This document shows, in pieces, positions 1,557 through 49,149 of a DNA stretch of 64,000 nt. Within the stretch, counting starts at the first letter, position 1. The number at the start of each line of letters is the position of its first letter. The stretch is taken from positions 1 to 64,000 of the forward strand of contig CAVVEU010000013.1 in the NCBI GenBank assembly GCA_963747235.1, in the 5' to 3' direction. The position numbers and the translations under genes were made by a program. The notes below the pieces were generated by a model, which was given only the letters and a program-made list of their open reading frames with translations, did no database searches and was not told where the DNA came from. The DNA is from an uncultured Candidatus Rokubacteria bacterium (lineage in GTDB: Bacteria > Methylomirabilota > Methylomirabilia > Rokubacteriales > CSP1-6).

Positions 1557-3570
1557 AGCTCGTCCGGGAACTCGCTGAGCGCGGACAGGATCGAGAGCGG
1601 CGCGGCCTGACCGAGGCCGCAGAGCGAGGCCACGCGCACCACGTCGGCCAGCTCGGCCACCGCCTGGCGGTCCACCGGCGCGCGACCATCGAGCATGTCG
1701 CGCAGCCGCGCGGTGCCCTCGCGGCACGGCGTGCACTTGCCGCAGGACTCGCGCGTGTTGAAGTCGAGCAGCACGCGCACCGCCTCGGCCACCGGGACCC
1801 CCGCGTGCAGCGCCGCGACCCCGCCGGTGCCCGGATTCGGGTTGCCGCCCGGCACCAGCGGCTCATCGAAGCGGCGCGGCGGGACGAGGATCCCCGAGGG
1901 CCCGCCGAGGGCCACCGCGGTCACCGGCCGGCCATCCGGCGCGCCGCCGCCCATGCGCTCCAGCAGATCGCGCAGTGTCAGACCGAGCTCCGCCTCGATC
2001 ACGCCGGGGCGCGCCACGTGGCCGGAGAGGCCGAACACCTTGGTGCCGTGCCCGCGGCCGAGCCCGGTCCACCACTCGGCGCCGCGGCCGAGGATGAGCG
2101 GGACCGTGAACAGCGTCTCGACATTGTTGATGACGGTGGGCCGGCCGTGAACGCCCGACTCGGTCGGGAACGGCGGCTTCGGGCGTGGCATCGCGCGGCG
2201 GCCCTCGAGCGACTCCATCAGCGCCGTCTCCTCGCCCAGCACGAACCCGCCCGCGCCGCGCCGGATCTCGACCGTGACCGAGAAGTCGCTGCCGAGCACG
2301 CGCTCGCCCACGAAGCCCGCCGCGCGCGCCTGGTCCAGCGCGCGCTCGATGTGGCGCGCGGCCAGATGCGCCTCGCCGTGGATGTAGAGGATCACGCGCG
2401 ATACGCCCGCCGCGTAGGCCGCCAGCAGCGCGCCTTCGAGGAGCCGGTGGGGATCGCCCTCCAGGAGGTGGCGGTCCTTGAAGATGCCGGGCTCGCCCTC
2501 CTCACCGTTGACGATCAGGTACTTGACGGGCCCGGCCGCGCGGCGCGCGCCTTCCCACTTGAGCGCGGCCTGGAAGTAGGCGCCGCCGCGGCCCCGCAGC
2601 CCGGCGCGCTTGATGGTCTCGATGACGCGCTCGGGCTGCGCCTCGGCCAGCGCGCGCCGGAGCGCGGCGTAGGAGCCGAGCCGGATCGCGTCGGCGATAT
2701 CGCCGGGGTCCGTGATGCCGCAGCGGCTCATCAGCTCGCGCCGCTGGCCGGCCAGGAACGCGGCGACGTCGGCGTGCTCGGGTGGCGCGCCCGCGCTCGA
2801 CGGCGTTCAGCAGCGCGGCGGCCTGGTCGGCGGTCACGCGCGGGACGACGCGCGGGGCCTCGTCGCCGCGCAGCACGGTGACGACCGGCGCGGCCCAGCA
2901 CATGCCGTTGCAGCCGCCGGCGACGACGCGGGCGGGAAGATTGCGGCGCGCGATCTCGTCGCGCAGGGCGCGCAGCGTGTCGGCCGCGCCGACCGAGAGG
3001 CCGCAGGTGCCGGCGCCGACGACCAGGGTGAGCGTGGGCGTGCCCCTCACCCCGGCCCTCTCCCCGGAGGGGAGAGGGAGACTCGAGGGGAACCCTCGCC
3101 CCCGGAGGGGGAGAGGGCCGGGTGAGGGGGCGCGGCCAGCAGCGCGTCCACGGCCGCCGCCTGCCACCCGCCCGCGATGCTCGCCCTCCACCTCCACCAC
3201 CGGCGCCATCGCGCAGTCGAACGCGCAGTCGAGCCGCTCGAGCGTCACCGCGCCGTCGGCGCGTCGTCGCGCCCGCCGCGATGCCGAGGCGCCGCTCGCA
3301 CGCGGCCAGCACGTCCAGCCCGCCCCGCACCCGGCACGAGAGCCCCACGCAGACCCGGACCACGCGCCGCCCCGGCTCGGTCAGCCGGAACTCGGGATAG
3401 TGCGTCGCGACGCCGTACACCTCGGTCTTCGGCACGCGCAGATGGTCCGCCGCCTCCTCCAGCGCCGCGGGCGAGAGCCAGCGATCCCGGTGCTGGAGCG
3501 CGTGCAGCGCGGGCAGCAGCCAGGTCCGCTCGCGCGGGAAGCGGCTCAGGGCGTCGGCGGGGTCGGACAC
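1553..3570 (-). CDS. NuoE-like + thioredoxin-like [2Fe-2S] + NuoF-like NADH-oxidising flavoprotein fusion (frameshifted)
   Basis: LLPALHALQ, EVYGVATHY, CVGLSC, CAFDCAMAP; GTCG..GGCNGMCWAAP; GLRGRGGA, EGEPGIFKDR, GEETAL, NNVET, ESCGKCTPCREG, SLCGLG. Confidence 0.85.
3043..3129. repeat. Inverted pair of REP-like palindromic elements inside the coding linker
   Basis: CCCCTCACCCCGGCCCTCTCCCCGGAGGGGAGAGGG ... CCCTCGCCCCCGGAGGGGGAGAGGGCCGGGTGAGGGG. Confidence 0.8.
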
Positions 3571-36075: not shown

Positions 36076-39000
36076 CTAGGCGCCCAGCGCGGCCTCGGCC
36101 CGTCCGAGCCAGAAGCGCATGTCCATCTCCCTGAAGAGCGCGGCCGCCTGCTCGAGGTGCCCGCGGCCCGCTTCGGGCTCACCCGCACGGTGAAGGGCCT
36201 GCGCCCAGGGCCAGGTGGCAGCGGCCGAGGAGCGGCCGAAGCCCGATGTCCCGCGCGATGCCGGCGGCCTCCTCGAGGGCCGCCCGCGCCGGGCCGGCCG
36301 CGCCCTCGGCGGAGCGGAGCTGGCCCAGGACGCGCAGCGCTTCGGCCACGAGCCAGCGTTGATGCTGGGCGCGGGCCATGCCGAGCCCGCGCTCGACGTG
36401 GGCGAGCGCCTCCGCCGGACGCCCGGCCAGCGCGCACGCCTCGGCGAGCATGGTCAGGTTCCAGGCATGGGTGGGCCGGAGATTCAACGCGGCCGACTGC
36501 GCGACCGCCTCCGCGAGGAGCGTCACGCCCTCCTCCGGCGCGTCCGGACAGCGCATAGGCCTGGCCGAGATCGCTGGCGACGAGCAGGAACAGGGGTCCG
36601 AAGCTGGCGCGGCGGCAGATCTCGACGCTCCGGCCGAGCCACGAGACCGCGAGCGGGAAATTGCCCTGGACCAGGTGCGGACGGCCCGCGCCGGCATAGG
36701 CCACGGCCAGGGAGAGCTCGTGCTGCGCCGCCTCGGCCAGCCGCTCGGCTTCCTCGGCGTGGGTGGACGCCTCCGCGAATTCCCCGAGGTACGCCAGGGA
36801 CCACGCCATGAAGGCGTGCGCGGTCGCCGAGCGGAGCGCGGCCCCGCCGGAGGGCTTGCTCTCGAAGCTCGGCGACATTGCGCGCGAACGCGGCGATGGC
36901 CTGGCGGTACTCGCCGAGGCTCAGATAGGCCTGGCCGAGGCGCAGGGTCGCGATGGCCGCGAGGGCGTGGTCGCCCAGTGTCCCCGCGATGGCCAGCGCC
37001 CGCTGGGCGGACTCGACGGCCCGGTCGGGCTGGCCGGACCACCAGTAGCCCTGGGTCATGTACGCCGCGATCCGGCCGAGCCGCCGCTGGTCGCCGAGCG
37101 CTCCGGCCACGCGCTCCGCCTCGTGGAGCGTCTCGAGCATGCGGACCACCTCGCCATGCGGCGTCAGCGCGTTGTGGAGGTCCAGGCGGAGGTCCACCTC
37201 CTGCTCGTCGCGCTCCTTGCCCGGCGGCAGGTGCGTGAGCGCGTCCAGCGCCTGCTCGGAGCACGTGACGGCTTCCCGGTAGGCGCTGTGCGCGGCGGCC
37301 TTGGCGCCGGCCTTGCGGAAGAGGAGCACCGCCTTGTCCCACAGGCCGCCCTGGAGCGCGTGGTGCGCCAGCCGGTCCACCTGCTCGGCCAGCCGGCCCG
37401 TCGCCAGCCGCTCGATGACCGAGACCAGGCGCGCGTGGAGCGCGCGGCGGTTGCCGTACAGCAGCGCGCCGTACGCGACCTCGTGCGTGAGCGCGTGCTT
37501 GAACGTGTACTCGAGGTCGGGGAAGAGGCTCGTCTCGTACAGGAACTCGGCGGCCTGCAGATGGCCCAGCGCCCGCCGCAGCTCCTCCTCGGGGGCGTCC
37601 TCGAGCGCCTGCAGGAGGGCAAAGGGCACGTCCTTGCCGATGACCGAGGCCGACTGGAGCAGGCGCTTCTCCCGATCGGGCAGGCGGTCGATGCGCGCGG
37701 CCAGGATGGACTGCACCGTCGCGGGGATCTGGATGCCCGCCAGCGGCCGCGCCGCGCGGTACTGTCCCCGCTCGCCGTCGAGCGCGCCCGTCTCCACCAG
37801 CGTCCGCACGCTCTCCTCGAGGAAGAAGGGGTTGCCGTCGGTGCGCTCGATCAGGAGCCGCTTGAGGGAGGCGAGGCCGGGCTCGACCCCGAGCAGCGCC
37901 TGCAGCAGCTCGTCCGCGCTCTCGTGCGCGAGCGTGTTCAGACGCAGGCGCGTGTAGTACGTCTTGCCGCCCCAGCCGTCCTGGTACTCCGGCCGGAAGT
38001 TGGCCAGCAGGACGATCCGCGCGCGCGGCACGCGCTCGACGAGGCCGTCGAGCAGCGCCTGCGTCTCGCTGTCCACCCACTGGAGGTCCTCGAGAACCAG
38101 GAGCAGGGGCTGGCTCTGACTCTCGCGCAGCAGGAGCGCCATGATGGCGTCGAGGGTGCGCTGGCGGCGCAGCGCGGGATCGAGCCCCTGCCACCGCGCG
38201 TCGTCGGCGGGCACGTCGAGCAGCGCCAGGAAGGCGGGGAGGGTCGGCTCGAGCGCCGGGTCGAGCGCGCGCAGCCGGGCGAGGACCTTGGTGTGGATCT
38301 CGCGCGCGCCGTCGCGGGCCTCGATCTGGAAGTAGCCCCGGAGCAGGTCCGTGATCGGCAGGTACGGCGTGGCCTTGCCGTAGGACAGCGACCGGCCTTC
38401 GAGGACGAGCCACTGGGGCCGGGACACGGCCTGCGTGATCTCGTGGACGAGGCGCGACTTGCCGACGCCGGGCTCGCCCACGACGGCCACGACCTGACCG
38501 CGGCCCGCCTCCGCCTGCTCGAGCGCTTCGTGGAGCTGGTCGAGCTCGGGCGCGCGCCCGACGAAGCGCGAGAGCCCGCGGCGCGCCGAGGCCTGCAGCC
38601 GCGAGCGCACCATGCCGGCGCCGGTGACCTCGAAGACCTCGAGCGGGACGTCCAGGCCCTTGACCGGCAGGACGCCCAGCGACCGCGTCTCGACATAGCC
38701 CTCGGCGAGGCGGAGGGTCTCGGCCGTGGTCAGCACGGCGCCGGGCGTGGCCATCTGCTCCATCCGCGCGGCCAGGTGCGTGGTCTGGCCGACCGCGGTG
38801 TAGCTCATGCGCAGGTCGTTGCCGATCGAGCGCACGACGACCTCGCCGGAGTTGAGGCCGACGCGGATCTGGATCGGGATGCCCTCGGTCCGGCGCACCT
38901 CCCTGGCGTGGCGCTTGACCGACTCCTGCATGCGGAGCGCCGCGTAGCAGGCCCGCACCGCGTGATCCTCGTGGGCGAGGGGCGCGCCGAAGAGCGCCAT

Positions 39001-39422
39001 GATGCCGTCGCCCATGACCTGGTTGACCGTCCCCTCGTACTGGTGCACGGCCTCCATCATGTGCTCGAGCACGGGGTCGAGGATCTTGCGCGCCTCCTCG
39101 GGATCGCGGTCCGCCAGGAGCTCGAGCGAGCCCTGGAGATCGGCGAAGAGCACGGTGACCTGCTTGCGCTCGCCCTCGAGCGCGCTCTTCGAGGTGAGGA
39201 TTCGCTCGGCGAGGTGCCGGGGCGTGTACGACTCGGGCGAGGCGAAGCGCGCCTGGCCGGTGGGCTTGCGCGTCCACCGGCCGCCCGCACTGGCCGCAGA
39301 AGCGGACGTCCTCGGCGAGCTCGGCCCCGCACGCGCCGCACGAGAGCGCGAGCCGCGCGCCGCACTCGGTGCAGAACCGCGACGACGCGGGCGTGTCGTG
39401 CCGGCAGCGCGGACAGATGCAT
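36076..39422 (-). CDS. Zinc ribbon-adenylate/guanylate cyclase-AAA ATPase-TPR protein (frameshifts)
   Basis: [63 protein letters not shown]. Confidence 0.9.
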
Positions 39423-39491
39423 GGGGCATCAGAGTAGCCCTCGCGTCCCGAGGGGTCAACACTCCCGGCGCTTCTGCTATACTTCGTCGCC

Positions 39492-40655
39492 GTGAACAGA
39501 CGCAAGCTCCTCTTCGATCTGCTTCCGAGGACACGGTACGGCGCATTGACCGTCGTGACGCCGGAGGGAACGACGCGTCGCTTCACCGGTGATCGTGAAG
39601 GCGAGGCCGCGACCTTCGTCCTGAAGGACTGGCGGGCCCTCGACGCGATCGCCCGGCGCGGGGACATCGGCCTCGGCGAGTCGTACATGGCGAATCTCTG
39701 GGAGACCCCGGATCTCAAGAGCTTCCTGACGTTCTGCCAGCGCAACCGCGACGAGTTCGCCCGGCTGACGCGATTCGACTTCGTGAACGCGCTGCTCTCG
39801 CGGGTCGCGCGGCTCACCAGCGCGAACTCCTTCACCGGGAGCCGGAAGAACATCGCGGCCAGCTACGACTACCCGGCGGGGCTCTACCAGTCGTACACCG
39901 ACCGCATGATGACGTACTCGAGCGGCTGGTGGGACGGCCAGGAGATGTCGTACGACGAGGCCCAGGTCAACAAGTACAACCGGATCCTGAGCCGGCTCGG
40001 GCCGCCGCCCCAGCACATCCTCGAGATGGGCTGCGGCTGGGGGTATTTCCTCAAGCTGGCCGCCGCGCGGGGCTACCGCGTCACCGGCTGCACGGTGTCC
40101 CAGCGCCAGTACGAGTACGCGCGAGACCTGAACGAGAAGGAGATCGCCGCGGGGCAGGTGACGGTGCTGCTGGAGGACTACCGGAACATGCGCGGCGAGT
40201 ACGACGCGGTCATGTCCACCGGCTTCTTCGAGCACGTGGGGTCGCGGTACTGGGTCGAGCACTTCCGCAAGGTGAAGCAGTACCTGAAGCCGGGCGGCGT
40301 GGCGATGATCCAGACGATGCTGTGCAACCGCTTCGACCCGAGGAACGGCAAGACCTTGAACTTCTTCTCCAAGTACATCTTCCCGGGCGGCGAGTTCCCC
40401 TCGGTGGGGACGTTCATCGTCGCCGCCGAGGAGGCCGGCCTGCGGTGCGAGGAGCAGCTCGCGTTCGGCCAGGACTATGCCCGGACCATGGAGGAGTGCT
40501 GGACGCGCTTCCACCGGAACCTCGACGACGTCCGGAGGCTCGGCTACGACGACGAGTTCATTCGCAAGTGGGAGTTCTTCCTCGCCGGCTGGTACGCGAT
40601 GTTCAAGTCGGGCCGCTACAACGTCATGCAGGCGAAGCTGGTCCACTACCCATGA
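39492..40655 (+). CDS. Cyclopropane-fatty-acyl-phospholipid synthase family SAM methyltransferase
   Basis: GDIGLGESYM, MTYSSG, LEMGCGWG, EDYR, KYIFPGG, DYARTM. Confidence 0.88.
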   Translation: MNRRKLLFDLLPRTRYGALTVVTPEGTTRRFTGDREGEAATFVLKDWRALDAIARRGDIGLGESYMANLWETPDLKSFLTFCQRNRDEFARLTRFDFVNALLSRVARLTSANSFTGSRKNIAASYDYPAGLYQSYTDRMMTYSSGWWDGQEMSYDEAQVNKYNRILSRLGPPPQHILEMGCGWGYFLKLAAARGYRVTGCTVSQRQYEYARDLNEKEIAAGQVTVLLEDYRNMRGEYDAVMSTGFFEHVGSRYWVEHFRKVKQYLKPGGVAMIQTMLCNRFDPRNGKTLNFFSKYIFPGGEFPSVGTFIVAAEEAGLRCEEQLAFGQDYARTMEECWTRFHRNLDDVRRLGYDDEFIRKWEFFLAGWYAMFKSGRYNVMQAKLVHYP

Positions 40656-40665
40656 GGAGGCCTGG

Positions 40666-42270
40666 ATGACCCGAGGGCGATCGATGGTGGCGGCGCTGCT
40701 CCTCGTGGCCGGCCTGGCCGGCGCGCCGGCTCCGCTGCCCGGCGCAGGCCCCCAAGCACGGCGGCGTGCTGACGATCATGCAGCGGGAGGAGCTGCCCCA
40801 GGGCCTGTCGATCCTCGAGACCTCCACGATCGCGACGGTGTGGCCGGCCTCGCCGTGCTTCAACAACCTCGTCTACTTCGATCCCGCCAAGCCCATGGAG
40901 ACGCCCGACACCATCGTGGGCGAGCTGGCCGAGAAGTGGTCCTGGCAGGACGGCTACCGGAACCTGGTCTTCTTCCTCAGGAAGGACGTGAAGTGGCACG
41001 ACGGCCAGCCCTTCACCTCTCGCGACGTGAAGTTCACCTTCGACGTGGTGCGCGAGGCGCCGGACGCCCCGGCGAAGCTGCGGCTCAATCCTCGGAAAGA
41101 CTGGTACGCCAACATCGAGGCGATCGAGGCGGCGGACCCCTACACGGTGGTCTTCCGGCTCAAGCGGCCCGCAGCCCTCCATCCTGATGATGCTGGCCTC
41201 GGGCCAGTCGCCGGTCTACCCGGCCCACGTGCCGATCGCCGAGCAGCGCAACCGCTGCGTGGGGACGGGGCCGTTCAAGTTCAAGGAGTGGCGGCGGGGC
41301 GAGTTCGTGGAGTACGTCCGGAACCCGGACTACTTCGTCAAGGGCCGGCCGTACCTGGACGGCCTCAAGTACGTGATCATCAGCGAGCGCGGCACCCGGA
41401 CCGCGGCGCTCCAGGCGGGCCGGCTCGACACCTCGGCGCCCGGTGAGATCACCAAGAACATCGCCGACCAGCTCAAGGCCGCGGTGCCCGGCATGGTGAT
41501 CACGCGGGTCGGCTCGCTCACGTCGCCCAACCTGCTCGTCAACCACGCGCGCCCGCCCTTCAACGACGCGCGGGTGCGGCGCGCGGTGGACCTCGCCATC
41601 GATCGCGACGGCTATATCAAAGGCGTGCTGCAGGGCGCGGCGGTGTCCGGCTCGCCGCTCGTGCCCCGGCCCTTCGGCTCGTGGGGCCTGACGGACGGCG
41701 AGATCGTGGGCATCCTGGGGCGCCCGGAGGGGCGCAAGGCGGCGGCGCGCAAGCTCCTCGCCGAGGCCGGCTACGGCCCCGCGACTCCGCTGCGCTTCGA
41801 GGCGCAGACGCGCGGCATCGCCACCTACGTGGACCTGGCCTCCTACGTGGTGAGCGAGCTGAAGCTGGTCGGGGTGGACATCACCGTCAAGCAGCTCGAC
41901 AGCGTGCAGTGGTACGGGGTCACCACCCGGAAGGAGTTCCAGCTCGGGATCAACATCTCGGGCTACGGGGTGGACGACCCCGACGCGATCCTGTTCGAGA
42001 ACTACACGTGCACCGCGCTGCGGAACTACACCAGCTACTGCGACGAGGGCGTGTCGCGCCTGATCGACCAGCAGTCGCAGGAGCTGGATCCCGAGGAAGC
42101 GCCTGGCTCTCGTCCACGAGATCCAGAAGAAGCTCACCGAGGCGGGCGCCCGCCCGACGGTGGCCTGGGGGATCGACCACTTCGCCCACTGGCCCTACGT
42201 GAAGGGCCTGGTGCCGCATCACTCGCTGTACAGCTTCGGCCGCATGCAGAACGTCTGGCTGGACCGCTAG
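40666..42270 (+). CDS. Family 5 ABC substrate-binding protein (frameshifts)
   Basis: ELAEKWSW, KWHDGQPFTSRDVKFTF, GTGPFKF, PPFNDARVRRA. Confidence 0.88.
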
Positions 42271-42412
42271 GTCATCAGACCCGGGGCATGGAGCGTCGGG
42301 CGTTCAGCCCCGGTCGTTGATCCAGGGGGACTTCGCGGCGCCGCTCGCCGCCCGGGCGAAGGCGCCGGGGAAGCTGGTACGGGCCCCAGGTCGCGCGACG
42401 CGTCGCAGGCCA

Positions 42413-43262
42413 TCACGGAATGACGGCCCCGGCGTTGGTGAACACGCGCCCCACCTCGGTCAACCCGTCGGCGATGGTCGGCCCGGCGGTGCAGGTCGCG
42501 GTGATTCCCATCTGGCGAACGTCGGCGAGCGGGACAATCGGTCGGGCGCGCATTGGCGGCGGCCGGGTAGGGAAGGGAATGCAGCGCTCCGTCGTCCACT
42601 CGGGCCAGGAACTGGTTGTGAGGCGCGTCCCAGATCAGCTGTAGCCGCACCTTCTGTCCAAGCGCAATGACGTCGGGGAAGTCGGTCGCGGCCACCGTGG
42701 TCACCGCGATGCAGCCGGCGTCGAGGCAGTGAAACAGGCGCCCCTCCACCCGGAGCACGCCGGCGATATCTCGCGAGTCGGACGCGCGAACGAGCTGGAT
42801 GCGGGCGAGGTAGTCGCCGATCAGGCTGCCCGGCGCCGGCGGGGTGGGGCCGTCGCTGAATCGGTTCAACGTGAGGGCGGCGGCCCGGATGACGGAGGGC
42901 GCCGGATTGGAGGCGCACCCGGTAACCTCGATGTGTTCGACTTTCACCTCCACCGCGATCTGGTCAACGGATGCCGGCCTGGTGAGCGAAGCGCGGCTGT
43001 GTCGAAGCTGAGTGCCCGCGTCCGTCTCCGTTGCACCCTCGGTACGCAGGCGCATCGACAGCTTGCGCCCCTGCACGGCGCGGCGAAACTCCTGCATCGA
43101 ATCGATGGAGCCGGTCCAGCGATCACCGCGCATGTGATCCGCGCCGCGCCAATCCTCGTACAAGGCAAACGGCTCGACGGCCTGGACTCGCGTCGGGCCG
43201 GAGAAGACAAGGCCACCGAGGGCCAAGGGGGCAAGGGCAGTCAATCGCATGATCCTCATCAT
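42413..43262 (-). CDS. Secreted protein of unknown function, paralog B (frameshift)
   Basis: Signal peptide; FALYEDW..GDRW, GCASN, FHCLDAGC, KVRLQLIWD, ends AVIP; GAGGAG RBS. Confidence 0.72.
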
Positions 43263-43292
43263 TGGTCGCTCCTCATCTCGCACGGCGAGCGG

Positions 43293-44156
43293 TCATGGAA
43301 TGACGGCCGAGGGGTCGCGTCAGGACCACCCCGATCTCGGTGGTGGTGTCGGCCACGCCGGCCTGGCCGAGGCAGTTTGCGCCCTGAGCTGAGCACGGAG
43401 ATTTTCGCGAAGGGAACGCGCGCCGGTCCCTGGTTCAGCCCGGCCGGGTACGGCAAGCGAGACGTCCGGGCTGTCATTGACTCGTGCCGACGAAGCGGTT
43501 GCTCGCGGCGTCCCAGATGAGGCGGAGCCGTACCTTATCCCCGACGCGGACGAGGGTTGGGCAGGGCGACGGATCCGTTCGGGATCGAACGGATCACGAA
43601 GCAGCGGGCGTTGTCGCACCGGAAGATCGCAAGGTGAACCTGGAGGGTGCCGGGCGGATCGGTCGAGGCTGACGAACGGAAGAGGCGGAGTCGACCGAAA
43701 TGGTCGCCCGTGAAGTCGCCGGCCGGTCCGGGGGTGCCGTCGCTGAACTTGCTCAGCGAGACCTGAAGCGGAAGGGCGGCCGACGCGGTGGTGGAGTTCG
43801 TGGGGCATCCGACGAGCTCGAGGTTCTTCACTCGAGCCTCAAGCACGAACCGGGTGACGCCCAGCGGATGGGTCGTGTTCAGCTCGAGCTCCGCCCCGAG
43901 CGGACCCGATGTTCAAGCTGTTGCTCCCTTCACGTCGCAATCGCAGGTGCGCGCGCCGGCCCTTCAGCTCCTTGAGCGTGTCCTGGGCGGAGGTCGCGCT
44001 GCCGCGCCAGCGGTCGCCGCGGATGTCATCGGCGGTACTCCAGTCTTCGTAGACGGCGAATCCGACCGAGTCCTGGCGCGCCTGGACCGCGGGCACGCCG
44101 AGAGCGAGGACCGCGAAGACACTAGCGAATCCGATCAGTCCCTTCGTGTGTTCCAT
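43293..44156 (-). CDS. Secreted protein of unknown function, paralog A (frameshifts)
   Basis: Signal peptide; FAVYEDW..GDRW, GCPTN, FRCDNARC, KVRLRLIWD, ends AVIP; GGAGG RBS. Confidence 0.72.
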
Positions 44157-44320
44157 GCGCAGAATCCTCCTGGATCCCCGGTGCCGAGAGCTCCGGGCGA
44201 TCACACTCGACGCCCGGACGCTCTCGCCGCCACGCATTCGACGTGGCAATGGATCGCTGCGGCTCCAGAAGGTATGTGCCGTCCCAGTGCCATCCGTTTG
44301 CATCGACGGTGACCTTCGGC

Positions 44321-44782
44321 TCATGTGTGAACCCGGTACGTCCCGGTACTCCCTTCCGCGAAGAAGGCGCACAGCCACGTTGTTCGCGACGACACGATGA
44401 TCACCGCCTTGACGGTCGAAGCTGCTCGTGGTGTAGCCGTCGCGTCGGTGAGCACTGGCGTCCGGCCGTTGAGGTAATTGAAGGCATCGGTCGAAAGTAC
44501 GAGTGCCGGGCATGCCGGGCGGAAGCTAGGTACGTTGGCGTACGAACGTTGCAGAATCTGCCGGCAACGTGCCGCGGCGTGACGTCGCAGCGACTCGGGC
44601 GCCATGTCCGGGAAGGCGGTGGATCCATATTGGTGAACGGTCCGCGGATTGCGATGATCCAGCTCGCACGGCGCGCGCAGGATGGTCTCGTGGCCACGAG
44701 GAGAGTCGGCATGCACAGTGGCTCCTCCGACAGCATCGGGGCAGCTGTAAGAGCGCAAGTGCGGATGCCGTTCGAGTCGCAT
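44321..44782 (-). CDS. Hypothetical protein, possibly secreted, probably with internal frameshifts
   Basis: AGGAGG RBS before ATG 44782, ~70 nt after the predicted sigma54 start site. Confidence 0.5.
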   Translation of the reverse strand: MRLERHPHLRSYSCPDAVGGATVHADSPRGHETILRAPCELDHRNPRTVHQYGSTAFPDMAPESLRRHAAARCRQILQRSYANVPSFRPACPALVLSTDAFNYLNGRTPVLTDATATPRAASTVKAVIIVSSRTTWLCAFFAEGSTGTYRVHT

Positions 44783-44862
44783 CGTGCCCCCTCCTATCGA
44801 GCACAGTATGAACTCAGGCTAGCTCTCGGACGAGTCCCGAGCGCATCGCTCGAGTCAGCAGT

Positions 44863-44878
44863 TGCGCAAGACGTGCCA
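44863..44878 (-). promoter_or_regulatory. Sigma54 -24/-12 promoter
   Basis: TGGCACGTCTTGCGCA: perfect TGGCACG and exact GG-N10-GC spacing. Confidence 0.65.
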
Positions 44879-44990
44879 CTTGGCAGGGGGCGATGTGAGC
44901 GGGGAATATCGGCAGATACGGCGCGAGCTTACGGCCGGCATGGAGGGGCGACGGTGCGTGACGCGCTGAGGCGGTGCTGGCGGGTCGTCG

Positions 44991-45030
44991 CTGCTCAAAC
45001 TGTTCGGAAATCTGAGCAGTGACCTGAGCA
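44991..45030. promoter_or_regulatory. Candidate upstream activator sequence
   Basis: CTGCTCA-N15-TGAGCAG inverted repeat with nested CTGTTCG and a further CTGAGCA, 113-152 bp upstream of the -24 box. Confidence 0.5.
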
Positions 45031-45053
45031 AGCGGGTACGCGTATCCGCGGCT

Positions 45054-48000
45054 ATGGAAGCACTGGCTGAACTGCTCGGTGAGAGCCCGGCCATCAGCGT
45101 GGTCCGCGGGAAGCTGCGCCAGCTGCTGGAGGGCCAGCCGACCGGGCGGCGCCTCCCCGCAATCCTCATCCAGGGGGAAACCGGCACCGGCAAGGGGCTC
45201 GTCGCCCGGCTCATCCATCGGATGGGGCCGCGGAAGGGCGGCCCCTTTGTAGACATCAACTGCCCAGGGATCCCGGAGACACTGCTCGAGGCCGAGCTGT
45301 TCGGCTTCGAGCGGGGTGCCTTCACCGACGCGCGTCGCGCCAAGCCCGGCCTCCTTCAAACCGCGCACCGGGGCACGCTCTTCCTCGACGAGGTCGGGCC
45401 TGTTGCCCGAATCGGCCCAGGCCAAGCTCCTCACCGTGCATCGAGGAACGTGTCGTCCGCCGCCTCGGCAGCACCCGGCCGGAGGCGATCGACGTCTGCT
45501 TCATCAGCGCCACGAACATCGACCTCCAGGCGGCGCTCCGGGCGCGGCGCTTCCGGGAAGACCTCTATCATCGGCTGGCGGTGATCACATTCGAGTTACC
45601 CCCGCTGCGAGAGCGAGGTCGTGACGTGCTCCTCCTCGCCGAGCGGTTCCTCGACCGCGCCTGCGTCGACTATGGGCTGCCGCCGAAGACGCTGGGCGAG
45701 CAGGCCCAGGCCCGCCTGCTCGCGTATCGCTGGCCCGGCAATGTCCGCGAGCTGGCCAACGTGATGGAGCGTGCCGCGCTCTTCGCCGACGCGCCCGTGG
45801 TCACCGAAGCGATGCTGGAGCCGCTGTCGGCGGAGGGGCTCCACCCAGGGGCCCGGCGCCCAGCGCGAGTGCCGGTGCCGTCACGCCGGAAGAGGCGATG
45901 CGCCAGCATCTCCTGGCGGTGCTGGAGCAGAGCGCGGGGAACATCTCGCACGCCGCGGCCAGGCTGGGCATTGCCCGCAACACGCTCTACGCGCGCCTTG
46001 AGAAGTACGGTGTGCGCAGCCACCATCCTCCTCCCCGCCGCTCCGAGTCCGATCCCCGCGCCGACGGACACACGGATCCAGTGGGAACGCCGCGGGATCA
46101 CGCTGCTCTGCGCCGCCCTCGTCGAGGCGGACGGGGGCGACGAGGCGTCACCTCCGAGCCGGGCCTGGAAGGACGTGATCGACAAGCTGCAGACGTTCGG
46201 CGGCCGCGTAGAGGAAGTGACGCCGACGAGCGTCGTGGCCTCGTTCGGGGTCGATCCGGTGGAGGATGCGCCACGCCGCGCTGCTCATGCCGCGATGGTC
46301 ATTCACAAGAGAGCCGAGCGCGCCGTGAGGACAAGAGCAGGACGCCGGGGGTCAAGATCGGCATCCACGTGGCGCAGGTTCTCGTCGGACGCTCGGCGAG
46401 GCCGGATCGACATCGACGCGGAGGCCGAAGCGCGCGCAGTGGGCGGTGCTCGATCAGCTCCTGCAGACATCGGGACGGGACGAGACGGTGGCGAGTGCGG
46501 CGGCGGCCTCATTCTTGGAGCGCCGGTTCGAGCTCGTGCCGCTCGACGTCGGGGCGCCGAGTGCGGAGCAGCTCTATCGGCTCACGGGGCAGGAACGCCG
46601 GGGGTTGGGCCTGTGGGGTGCGATGACGAAGTTCGTGGGGCGTCGACGACGAGGTCGAGGTCTTACGGGGCCGCGTGGCCGCGGCGGGGAATGGGCAGGG
46701 CCAGCTCGTGGCGGTCGTCGGGGAACCTGGGGTGGGCAAGTCGCGCCTCTTGTGGGAGTTCACCCGCTCGCCGTCACGTTGCCGGCTGGCTCGTGCTGGA
46801 AGCGGGCGCCGTCCCCTACGGCAAGACCACGCCCTATCTCCCCGTGATCGACCTGCTCAAGGCCTACTGCGGGATCGGCGACCGCGATGACCAGCGCGCC
46901 ATCCGCGAGAAGGTCACCGGCAAGCTCCTCTCCCTGGACCCGGCGTTCGAGGTCGCCCTGCCTGCGTTCCTGACCCTGCTCGACCTGCCCGTGGACGACC
47001 GGGCGTGGCAGGCGCTCGACCCGGCCGGGCGGCGGCAGCGTACCCTGGAGGCCGTCAAGCGCCTCCTGCTGCGTGAGAGCCAGGTGCAGCCGGTGGCGCT
47101 CGTGTTCGAGGATCTGCAGTGGATCGACGGCGAGACGCAGGCGGTACTCGGGAGCCTGGCCGAGAGCCTCCCCGGGGTCCGTCTGCTGCTGCTCGGCAGC
47201 TATCGGCCCGAGTATGCTCATGGCTGGGGCAGCCAGGCCTGCTACACGCAGCTCCGGATCGACCCGCTGCCGCGGGAGAGTGCCGAGCGTGCTGCTCGAG
47301 GTACTCGTCGGGAGCGACCCCGGCCTGGACACGCTCAAGCGACTCCTGATCCAGCGAACCGAGGGCAATCCGCTCTTCGTCGAGGAGAGCGTCCGAGCGC
47401 TGGTCGAGACGGGCGCGTTGACGGGCGCGCGAGGCGACTACCGGCTGGCGCGCGACCTGCCCGCGATCCACGTGCCCGGCACGGTGCAGGCCATCTTGAC
47501 CGCGCGCATCGACCGCCTGCCGCCCGAGGAGAAGCGGCTCCTCGAGATTGCCGCGGTCATCGGGAAGGACTTTCCCCTGGCTCTCCTCCTGGCGGTGGCG
47601 GACGAGAACGAGGGGACGATCCGTCGCGGGCTGGGCTCATCTTCAGACGGCCGAGTTCGTCTACGAGACGCGCCTCTTCCCCGATCTCGAGTACACCTTC
47701 AAGCACGCGCTCACCCATGAGGTGGCCTACGGGAGCCTCCTCCACGACCGGCGCCGTGACCTCCACGCCCGGATCGCGGAGACCATGGAGCGCCTCTACG
47801 GTGATCGCCTCGGCGAGCAGACCGAGCGGCTCGCCCATCACGCGGTCCGTGGCGAGGTGTGGGAGAAGGCGGTGCACTATCTCAGGCAGGCCGGACTCAA
47901 GGCGGCCACGCGATCGGCACTGCGCGGAAGCCGCAGGTCTGGTTCGAGCAGGCGCTGGGTGTGCTCGGGGCACTGCCGGAGAGCCCGTCCACGCTGGAGC

Positions 48001-49149
48001 AGGGCTTCGAGATCCGCCTCGAGCTGGGGCCGGTGCTGGTGCAGCTCGGTGAGGACTCGGCGGAGGCTGGACCACGCGCGCGAGGCCGAAACCCTCGCCG
48101 AGCGGTTGAACGACGACTCGCCGCCGCGGCCGAGCCTGACCTTGCCCTGTGCAACGCCCACGCGCTGCTCGGCGAGCCGGACGAGGCGCTGGTGGCCGGC
48201 GCCCGCGCGCTGGAGCTTGCCGAGGCGGCTCGGGGACCTGAGGCTCCGCATCCTGGCCCCGACACTATCTCGCGCAGGCGCATTTCTTCCGGGGCGATTT
48301 CGAGCGGGCGGTCGAGCTGTCCACCGATAGCCTCGCGGCGCTGCCCGCCGACTGGGTCCACGATCCTTTCGGATACAGCCCCATACCGATCGGGGTCTAC
48401 TGTCGCCTCTGGGTGGTCCACAGCCTCGCCGAGCTCGGCCGATTCGCCGAGGCGGCCCCGTACGAGGCGGAGTTGCTCCGGCTCGCCGAGGCCGACTCAG
48501 CATGCGTTCACGCGTCGGGGTGGCCTACGACGCCGCGAGCTGGCTTCACCTCCGGAAGGGTGACTGGGCGACGGCGCACTCGGTGATCGAGCACGGTATC
48601 GCGGCGGTCCGGAAGGGGAGCATTGCCGCCGGACCTTCGCGACCATGGTCGCCGCGTCCGCCTGGGTCCTCGCGCAGCTCGGCGAGGCGAGCGAGGCGCT
48701 GACCCGGCTCCGGGAGGGCGAGCGGCTCCTCGAGTGTCAAGCGGGCGTGGCACGGCGTGCTCATGCCCTACCAGTCGATGGGACGTGCGGCTCTGCTGCT
48801 CGACCGGCTCGACGAGGCGCAGCGTCTGGGGGAACGCGCCGTCACATATTCTCCGTTTCGCCAGAGCGACGAAGCCCATGCGCTGCACCTGCTCGGCGAC
48901 ATCGCGACCCATCCCGACCGATTCGATGCCGAGAGCGGAGAGGCCTACTACCGGAAGGCGCTGGCGCTCGCCGAGCCGCGCGGCATGCGGCCTCTCGTCG
49001 CCCACTGCCACCTCGGCCTCGGCAGGCTCTACGCGCGCACCGGCAAGCGGGAGGCGCAGGAACACCTCACCATCGCGACGAGGATGTACCGGGAGATGGA
49101 CATGTCGTACTGGATCGAGCAGGCGGAGAGCGTGAAAGGCTCCCGCTAG
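45054..49149 (+). CDS. Sigma54 activator AAA+-Fis HTH fused to degenerate cyclase-like, AAA ATPase and TPR domains (many frameshifts)
   Basis: [81 protein letters not shown]. Confidence 0.85.

Follow-up and report, generated by a model that had tools for sequence, protein, structure and literature searches.

Enhancer-binding proteins (EBPs) are textbook activators of sigma54-dependent transcription, under the control of either a partner protein or a sensor at the N-terminus; only the hexamer is active, and its assembly is commonly the regulated step. Oligomerisation is also characteristic of the STAND NTPases, which self-associate on binding of ligand and nucleotide and which, in activators such as MalT and AfsR, occur together with a tetratricopeptide repeat (TPR) or MalT-like sensor and a DNA-binding output. 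A gene on a stretch of 64,000 nucleotides from an uncultured Candidatus Rokubacteria bacterium (GenBank assembly GCA_963747235.1, contig CAVVEU010000013.1, positions 1 to 64,000; here called the window, with a G+C content of ~70%) appears to code for a fusion of a complete EBP with a degenerate cyclase domain, a STAND-type NTPase and a TPR region. We consider it likely that this gene represents, together with its adjoining binding sites and target genes, a self-contained sigma54 regulatory module in which one polypeptide of ~1365 amino acids carries its STAND input at the C-terminal end. A first-pass annotation of the window had already proposed an NLR-like receptor with a sigma54 activator as effector, and this interpretation is supported within the limits of sequence evidence, all of its refuting conditions that could be examined by computation having turned out in its favour. 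The coordinates of the relevant features are collected in Table 1.

The predicted series of domains, consisting of a sigma54-type AAA+ domain, a Fis-type helix-turn-helix (HTH), a second P-loop ATPase and TPRs, was recovered in this order by Pfam searches with the pieces of the open reading frame (ORF) present in the window (Sigma54_activat, 1.4e-32; AAA_lid_14, 2.1e-20; HTH_8, 1.9e-11; AAA_16, 7.5e-09; TPR_12, 1.5e-07), and an intact homologue from a related genome (G019), when used as tblastn query, covered positions 45054-49131 in several frames. In the intact homologues, Sigma54_activat extends over residues 8-179, the AAA lid over 185-264, HTH_8 over 283-318, AAA_16 over 530-716 and the TPR/MalT-like region over 1025-1360, with E values of 3.4e-57 for PF00158, 3.3e-30 for PF13191 and 1.3e-11 for TPR_MalT in an intact paralogue. 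The AAA+ domain begins at residue 8 and leaves no room for an N-terminal sensor, which agrees with the earlier statement that a REC or GAF input is missing.

As judged from these features, the N-terminal third of the fusion appears to be a complete PspF-like EBP, composed of AAA+ domain, lid and Fis-type HTH. PspF chains match it at E ~1e-52 and likewise start with the AAA+ domain, but PspF stops after the HTH and is controlled in trans by PspA, whereas the fusion departs from the textbook EBP by continuing behind the HTH with ~1040 residues of pseudo-cyclase, STAND and TPR sequence, presumably a C-terminal control module acting in cis, and by lacking any N-terminal domain. The best solved relatives of the AAA+ core are members of the ZraR/NtrC1/NifA group (ZraR, 1ojl, E 4.4e-62; the NtrC-family structure 3dzd, 4.4e-58; NifA, 9qq6, 2.5e-57), with which it shares the Walker motifs and an enhancer that precedes a -24/-12 promoter by roughly 100-150 bp. 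The alignment to ZraR shows conservation of the RFREDLY region as well as of Walker A (GETGTGKG) and Walker B (LFLDEVG). In contrast to the fusion, these proteins carry REC or GAF inputs before the AAA+ domain, and the GAFTGA loop of ZraR is aligned to GAFTDA, which is the norm in the fusion proteins and is also read in the window itself.

The STAND part contains a Walker A motif of the type G.PG.GKS and an acidic Walker B motif (hhhFEDL(H/Q)W), and the C-terminal repeat region, recognised as TPR_12/TPR_MalT, would serve as its sensor. The term "NLR-like" is appropriate if it is taken to mean a STAND NTPase combined with a repeat sensor. MalT and AfsR show the same combination, and in AfsR the DNA-binding part is N-terminal as in the fusion; however, their LuxR or SARP outputs act on sigma70 polymerase, whereas the fusion would use a hexameric AAA+ motor for sigma54. 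Closer relatives of the C-terminal two thirds are proteins of the order cyclase-AAA_16-TPR (e.g., those encoded at loci L023 and L053), to which the fusion is homologous from ~residue 342 onward with 40-45% identity in many loci; mycobacterial Rv0386 is presumably of the same type. The fusion differs from these proteins by the complete EBP added in front and by the state of the cyclase domain.

This domain, described as a degenerate cyclase-like region in the first-pass annotation, corresponds to residues ~342-530 between the HTH and AAA_16. In all eight fusion proteins examined it gave no Pfam match, PF00211 (Guanylate_cyc) included, whereas both of the non-fused paralogues (L023 and L053) matched this model at 2.2e-25, and the identity to the N-terminal domains of these paralogues amounts to 24-26% (tblastn E below 1e-5). 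An AlphaFold2 model built on an alignment of paralogues (mean predicted local distance difference test score, pLDDT, 74.5) was compared with known folds by Foldseek, and all matches listed are class III adenylyl or guanylyl cyclases (best E 6e-11; template modelling (TM) scores 0.59-0.74, normalised by target). The first metal-binding aspartate, located in a FADL motif, is mostly replaced in the fusions (AAL, ATL or VAL), with ADL or VDL kept in about a quarter of the family, and the second one is lost by a change from GDG to TPT. Because of the loss of these aspartates the domain cannot be a working cyclase, and it is predicted to be catalytically dead in the fusion while retaining the class III fold.

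Table 1. Features of the fusion gene, its upstream region and the divergent genes, as positions in the window.
Feature	Positions	Strand	Basis or remarks
Sigma54 activator/pseudo-cyclase/STAND/TPR fusion gene	45054..49149	+	~1365 aa if read through; Pfam, tblastn, list of indels
Sigma54-interaction AAA+ domain (approximate limits)	45075..45595	+	PF00158; Walker A, GAFTDA loop, Walker B LFLDEVG; alignment to ZraR 1ojl
AAA+ lid domain	45608..45826	+	PF25601, E 2.1e-20, residues 10-82 of ORF 45581
Fis-type HTH (HTH_8), in mid-protein, not terminal	45901..46008	+	PF02954, E 1.9e-11, residues 2-37 of ORF 45898
Degenerate class III cyclase-homology domain (approximate limits)	46060..46640	+	Alignment to paralogues, AlphaFold2 model, Foldseek
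AAA_16 STAND-type P-loop NTPase (approximate limits)	46650..47290	+	PF13191 on window piece; Walker motifs kept
TPR/MalT-like repeat region (approximate start)	48120..49131	+	TPR_12 and TPR_MalT on window piece 48757-49149
Putative enhancer (upstream activating sequence): 29-bp palindrome CTGCTCA-N15-TGAGCAG and third TGAGCA half-site	44991..45030	.	24-63 nt upstream of regulator ATG
Conserved spacer element G(C/T)AAG(T/C)C-GCG..ATAC, midway from enhancer to promoter	44915..44932	-	Alignment of seven subfamily spacers
Sigma54-type -24/-12 promoter TGGCACGTCTTGCGCA, predicted start near 44852	44863..44878	-	Exact GG-N10-GC
First ORF after promoter	44321..44782	-	Strong Shine-Dalgarno sequence; weakly similar to the 159-aa secreted family A (G019, G002), probably as a frameshifted homologue
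Secreted paralogue C1, ConA-fold family	43300..44156 (~43300 approximate)	-	Signal peptide; at least 3 frame breaks
Secreted paralogue C2, ConA-fold family	42413..43262	-	Orthologue of G019 299-aa protein; one frameshift near 42560

The divergent spacer upstream of the regulator contains the repeats of the TGAGCA type that were noted earlier, namely TGCTCA-N15-TGAGCA with a third TGAGCA next to it. The palindrome pattern occurs once in the window, as compared to 0.05 expected matches, and a degenerate 32-nt version (up to three mismatches) was found at five sites in 4 of the 21 genomes of the genus, each of them directly upstream of a fusion gene; the reversed pattern, used as control, gave no site. 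For the promoter, the pattern [TC]GG[CA]A[CT]G-N5-CGC[AT] was drawn from four loci, leaving those in G002, L028 and L082 independent of its definition, and exactly one match was present on the divergent strand within the first 700 nt in all seven loci of the subfamily. Palindrome and -24/-12 box thus recur beside the fusion in 7/7 loci, including the three not used for the pattern. Three loci were kept out of the promoter counts: L039, where the match starts only at residue 59, the frames are interrupted and the upstream position is occupied by another gene; the C-family copy of G019:C35, which is located at a contig end where the upstream DNA is absent; and the fusion on contig C14 of the own genome, considered below. 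An alignment of the seven spacers shows only three conserved blocks, which are the near-invariant palindrome, the element G(C/T)AAG(T/C)C-GCG and the box TGG.A.G-N5-CGC with its TGG, A, G and CGC invariant, and the distance from the regulator ATG to the box varies from ~130 to ~180 nt. The middle block, which does not fit the consensus of IHF, may be bound by a DNA-bending protein or by a second regulator. The genome itself encodes RpoN with its AID, CBD and DBD domains (split over two frames).

The same layout, each time with a palindrome and a -24/-12 box of its own, was observed in other subfamilies of the fusion, whose boxes are of the canonical form TGGCAT-N5-(C/T)TTGC and occupy the equivalent position. 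A further fusion in the same genome (contig C25) is preceded by TGGTAA/TTACCA palindromes, an AT-rich stretch and the canonical box TGGCATTTGGTTTGCG, located before a gene for a ROS/MucR regulator (PF05443, 1.2e-14; L107 3186-3698, G000:C25:49185-49697, minus strand). Since this copy faces a regulator gene, the targets of the fusion family are not restricted to secreted proteins. The second fusion of G019 has the box TGGCATGTGGCTTGCC before a gene for a membrane protein without Pfam family; a CDP-alcohol phosphatidyltransferase, considered as its target, found no Pfam support. A homologue from a betaproteobacterial metagenome-assembled genome (MAG; L077), with 46% identity, a stop-to-stop open frame of 1385 codons and the GAFTDA loop, shows a palindrome GGTGAATATTCACC and a box TGGCGCGGAGGTTGCG before a gene for a Cys-rich secreted protein; these sites, as well as the -24/-12 box of L052, were read by eye.

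In most loci the divergent genes encode secreted proteins. The operon in G019 codes for family A (159 aa, secreted), family B (145 aa, Cys-rich, secreted), a secreted GDPD phosphodiesterase, C1 and C2, and that in the window for an A-like ORF followed by the same C1-C2 pair. Family B is faced by the paralogue on contig C40 of the same genome and by the copies in L028 and L082, family A by that in G002, and the genes opposite the upstream one of two tandem copies in G008 encode a protein with a lytic-transglycosylase domain and a secreted protein that belongs to no known family. Of three exported proteins claimed for the window, the two tandem paralogues C1 and C2 indeed carry signal peptides, while the first ORF (44782-44321) shows none in the reading of the window; the strong ribosome-binding site assigned to it is present as AGGAGG 7 nt before the ATG at 44782. 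This ORF has no Pfam match, and the family A to which it may belong gave a best score of 0.90 in the Protein Atlas, to be taken as a lead only. The C1 gene was traced through three frames by tblastn with the 299-aa protein of G019, and a homologue with 75% identical DNA lies directly upstream of the C2 gene of G019. The window C2 is 70% identical to the 299-aa protein over 250 aa; the final 57 aa, read in a different frame, are 56% identical. An element AGGAGGGGGCA(C/T)G is common to the long 5' leaders in L028 and L082, upstream of family B, and to positions 44780-44795 of the window, and is followed by a two-codon mini-ORF in the former two and by the start of the first ORF in the latter; this sharing may be due to chance in G+C-rich DNA.

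No Pfam family was matched by C1 or C2. The C family has 15 relatives in a large protein collection, with four invariant Cys residues in the alignment, and its AlphaFold2 model (pLDDT 82.5) represents a concanavalin A (ConA)-like jelly-roll beta-sandwich, the same fold class as given by the Protein Atlas. The structural matches include GH16 laminarinases, PL7/ulvan lyases and legume lectins (E ~4e-6; TM 0.45-0.58 by target; ~10% identity), and it may be guessed at the level of the fold that the ConA-fold proteins bind or cleave glycans. One of the database members of the family (P0126) shows the same out-of-frame C-terminal tail as the window ORF 42267-43283, hence a frameshifted reading of the C family is already contained in a public protein collection.

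In the window, the regulator gene is not the single ORF of 4.1 kb assumed in the first-pass annotation, but is split across at least ten frame segments, with overlapping ORF fragments in all three frames between 45054 and 49149 and a coding frame that shifts every 50-500 bases according to a third-position G+C plot and a simple frame hidden Markov model. The DNA search, which covered 41 genomes (the window's own and 40 relatives), yielded full-length matches in G008:C17 (85% identical, plus the second tandem copy), G019:C87 (84%) and contig C40 of the own genome (83%), which contain the homologous gene as single open frames of 1373, 1364 and 1362 aa, respectively. Aligning the window to these three homologues over the coding region revealed 19 frame-shifting indels private to the window, comprising 15 single-base insertions, 2 two-base insertions and 2 single-base deletions, in addition to a gap of 14 bases in the variable linker that follows the HTH and, close to the C-terminus, a gap of 3 bases and an insertion of 20. 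These differences, and the further breaks in C1, C2 and the first ORF, could indicate a real cluster of pseudogenes, in which regulator and targets were inactivated by genuine frameshifts and the intact paralogue on C40 carries the function. We consider this unlikely. Gene decay in bacteria favours deletions, whereas 17 of the 19 indels are insertions of one or two bases, and the insertions in the regulator fall outside homopolymer runs. Unrelated genes are broken as well, including a solute-binding protein gene ending at 42320, the gene after 49186 and rpoN (L001, G000:C8:724617-728090, ~522-1995), which appears to be an otherwise complete gene with a single frameshift, its AID frame running from 522 and CBD and DBD lying in another frame (565-1992).

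The assembly as a whole is rich in such events. Each of its four largest contigs (261 bins in all) has a median of 9-11 same-strand frame switches per 10 kb, compared to 2.7 in nine short-read loci of the phylum and 9.5 in six other long-contig MAG loci; the rate is ~3-4x that of the short-read loci, and the bin of the window at 40-50 kb contains 19 switches. Their density is patchy, bins with 16-23 switches adjoining others with 1-5 (window 0-10 and 20-30 kb; C13 70-80 and 90-100 kb), which suggests locally poor consensus quality. Moreover, the substitutions specific to the window lineage look selected, as they are distributed over codon positions 1/2/3 as 43/29/68 with 44 synonymous and 26 non-synonymous codon changes, similar to the lineage of the intact G008 orthologue (60/53/119; 76 and 56). 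Contigs from relatives, taken from four independent metagenome runs, were compared as well; among the 12 indel rows listed out of 44, they do not have the extra base of the window at 46401, 46425, 46645, 46775 and 48264 and carry the C missing from the window after 46322. Because the indels are mostly insertions, neighbours and rpoN are also hit, the assembly is indel-rich, the substitutions appear selected and the contigs of relatives lack the indels, we read the frame breaks as assembly errors rather than gene decay. The argument is indirect in so far as no public run holds the exact stretch.

A sigma54-independent mode of action, in which the protein would work from the palindrome as an activator or repressor of the classical kind, or solely as an autorepressor, and the match to a -24/-12 box would be incidental, seems improbable to us. 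It could be invoked on the grounds that the palindrome overlaps the regulator's own upstream region, that the -12 element is non-canonical, and that a pull-down described in PMC10714721, a paper which does not settle the matter for VfmH, did not detect an interaction of this GAFTDA-bearing protein with sigma54. However, PMC4641369 lists the GAFTDA motif of DVU2106, an EBP of D. vulgaris, among the variants said to keep activation, and the ATPase motifs of the fusion are conserved. TGG..A.G-N5-CGC is invariant within seven spacers that have otherwise diverged, the canonical boxes of the other subfamilies are found at the equivalent place, and a scan of positions 42200-45100 for sigma70 promoters and terminators detected none. 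It appears highly improbable that the STAND-TPR part is instead an Avs-like immune sensor of an invader protein and the secreted proteins are effectors of defence or attack. Anti-phage Avs proteins are indeed STAND NTPases with TPR sensors, the subfamily is patchy (4 of the 21 genomes of the genus), and its targets are variable small secreted proteins, including the lytic-transglycosylase-domain protein in G008 and the GDPD enzyme in G019. Yet the PADLOC models recognised nothing beyond the generic EBP core (RtcR-type): none of the STAND defence families was matched, and the secreted proteins had no match at all. The STAND core belongs to a cyclase-AAA_16-TPR signalling family that is expanded in each of the 41 genomes searched, a ROS/MucR regulator is the target in one subfamily, and no nuclease, protease or other suicide effector is present.

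Apart from the finding for VfmH, several observations weigh against the proposed sigma54 module and should be set beside the evidence in its favour. The promoter TGGCACGTCTTGCGCA is an exact GG-N10-GC match at 113-152 bp from the repeats as had been predicted, but its -12 element is CGCA instead of the canonical TTGC, and CGCW rather than TTGCW is found in its subfamily. With one match in 64 kb versus 0.58 expected, the bare promoter motif does not exceed chance, hence its weight comes from position and conservation and not from its frequency in the window. The fusion on contig C14 of the same genome has no match to the GG-N10-GC regular expression within 600 nt upstream, which is weak counter-evidence because this expression also missed the C25 promoter. 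In G008:C17 (L010 6705-15012), which contains two fusion genes in tandem, the full palindrome and the divergent promoter are found only at the upstream copy, and the downstream one (copy 1) retains only a remnant half-site and may be co-transcribed. Because of these two cases the pairing of fusion, palindrome and promoter is not universal. The link of the first divergent ORF to family A appears weak, consisting of a blastn match of 74% over 115 nt to the family-A gene of G019 (E 1.8e-6) and weak tblastn pieces in two frames. A sequence search of the PDB with the STAND-TPR part returned a single weak TPR match and no solved STAND relative, and the exact stretch of the window was absent from the public runs searched (best share of sampled words 0.15). 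Finally, negative control by the STAND part would be the alternative to ligand-gated assembly.

We still favour the sigma54 module, and propose that the HTH would bind the 29-bp palindrome, which closely precedes the start codon of the regulator itself, and that from there the AAA+ ring would remodel sigma54-RNA polymerase at the TGGCAC-N5-xCGCA promoter ~110-150 bp away. This would switch on the divergent operon for a family-A protein and two secreted ConA-fold proteins, which are probably glycan-binding or -cleaving, and enhancer binding would probably also autoregulate the regulator because the enhancer is so close to its ATG. As an EBP is active only as a hexamer, we infer that the STAND-TPR part sets the activator output by controlling oligomerisation; ligand and nucleotide would drive self-association of the STAND part and thereby assembly of the AAA+ ring, and the dead cyclase domain may act as dimerising adaptor, class III cyclase domains being known to dimerise. 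The order of the domains, the integrity of their motifs, the conservation of the cis elements and the linkage of the genes are directly visible in the sequences; the sigma54 dependence, the direction of the STAND control, the ligand, the autoregulation and the function of the secreted proteins are all inferred. More tentatively, the family may represent a new input logic, in which an NLR-like STAND switch behind the HTH templates the AAA+ hexamer via the dead cyclase dimer once a cytoplasmic ligand binds to the TPR region, so that the output of STAND oligomerisation would be transcription instead of cell death or a second messenger. Each paralogue would then be firmly tied to a palindrome of its own and to a single neighbouring promoter for secreted enzymes or binders of glycans or the cell envelope (ConA-fold, GDPD, lytic transglycosylase). 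Should assembly of the ring be gated by the STAND part, a single chain would link two well-studied oligomerising ATPase systems, and a reporter at the adjacent promoter would provide a simple readout of STAND activation. Because enhancer, promoter and targets adjoin the gene and are conserved, every step of the circuit can be tested with few constructs. The secreted targets are themselves members of unknown families.

The fusion is common in Methylomirabilota/Rokubacteria and occurs also in proteobacterial MAGs. A search with an intact paralogue returned 5926 proteins at E <=1e-10 among 8000 scored, and the best 120 of them all have the same architecture with at least 51% identity. Among the 111 full-length proteins of this set, GAFTDA is found in 109/111 and the EBP Walker A motif in 106/111, and the STAND Walker A and Walker B (FEDL[HQ]W-type) motifs are each present in all but ~2. 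The junction segment alone (HTH plus pseudo-cyclase) matched 482 clusters at 50% identity (E <=1e-10). Of the best 150 representatives of these, 63 have a length of at least 1250 aa, 59 of the 63 contain both Walker A motifs and 53 GAFTDA, and in none of the 63 does the EBP Walker A start beyond residue 61, which leaves no N-terminal sensor in any of them. Four of the 20 EBP loci of the own genome are fused. The databases give only generic names to the family, and we found no description of an EBP followed by cyclase fold, STAND and TPR in the literature searched, whose coverage excludes most subscription journals, so that absence is not proven; passages in PMC12316311 and PMC7159879 do not describe the architecture. 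We regard the locus as a real, conserved and unstudied module of regulator and targets.

The STAND part (query bases 1994-3350) has matches in all 41 genomes, with hundreds of first-look candidates per genome, and genes of the type cyclase-AAA_16-TPR appear to be very largely expanded in this order. One such paralogue is encoded next door in the window (36179-39853, minus strand) as an intact protein of 1224 aa, a non-EBP member of the cyclase-STAND-TPR proteins which carries a double zinc ribbon in front and is homologous to the fusion from ~residue 341, with 48% identity over 783 aa.

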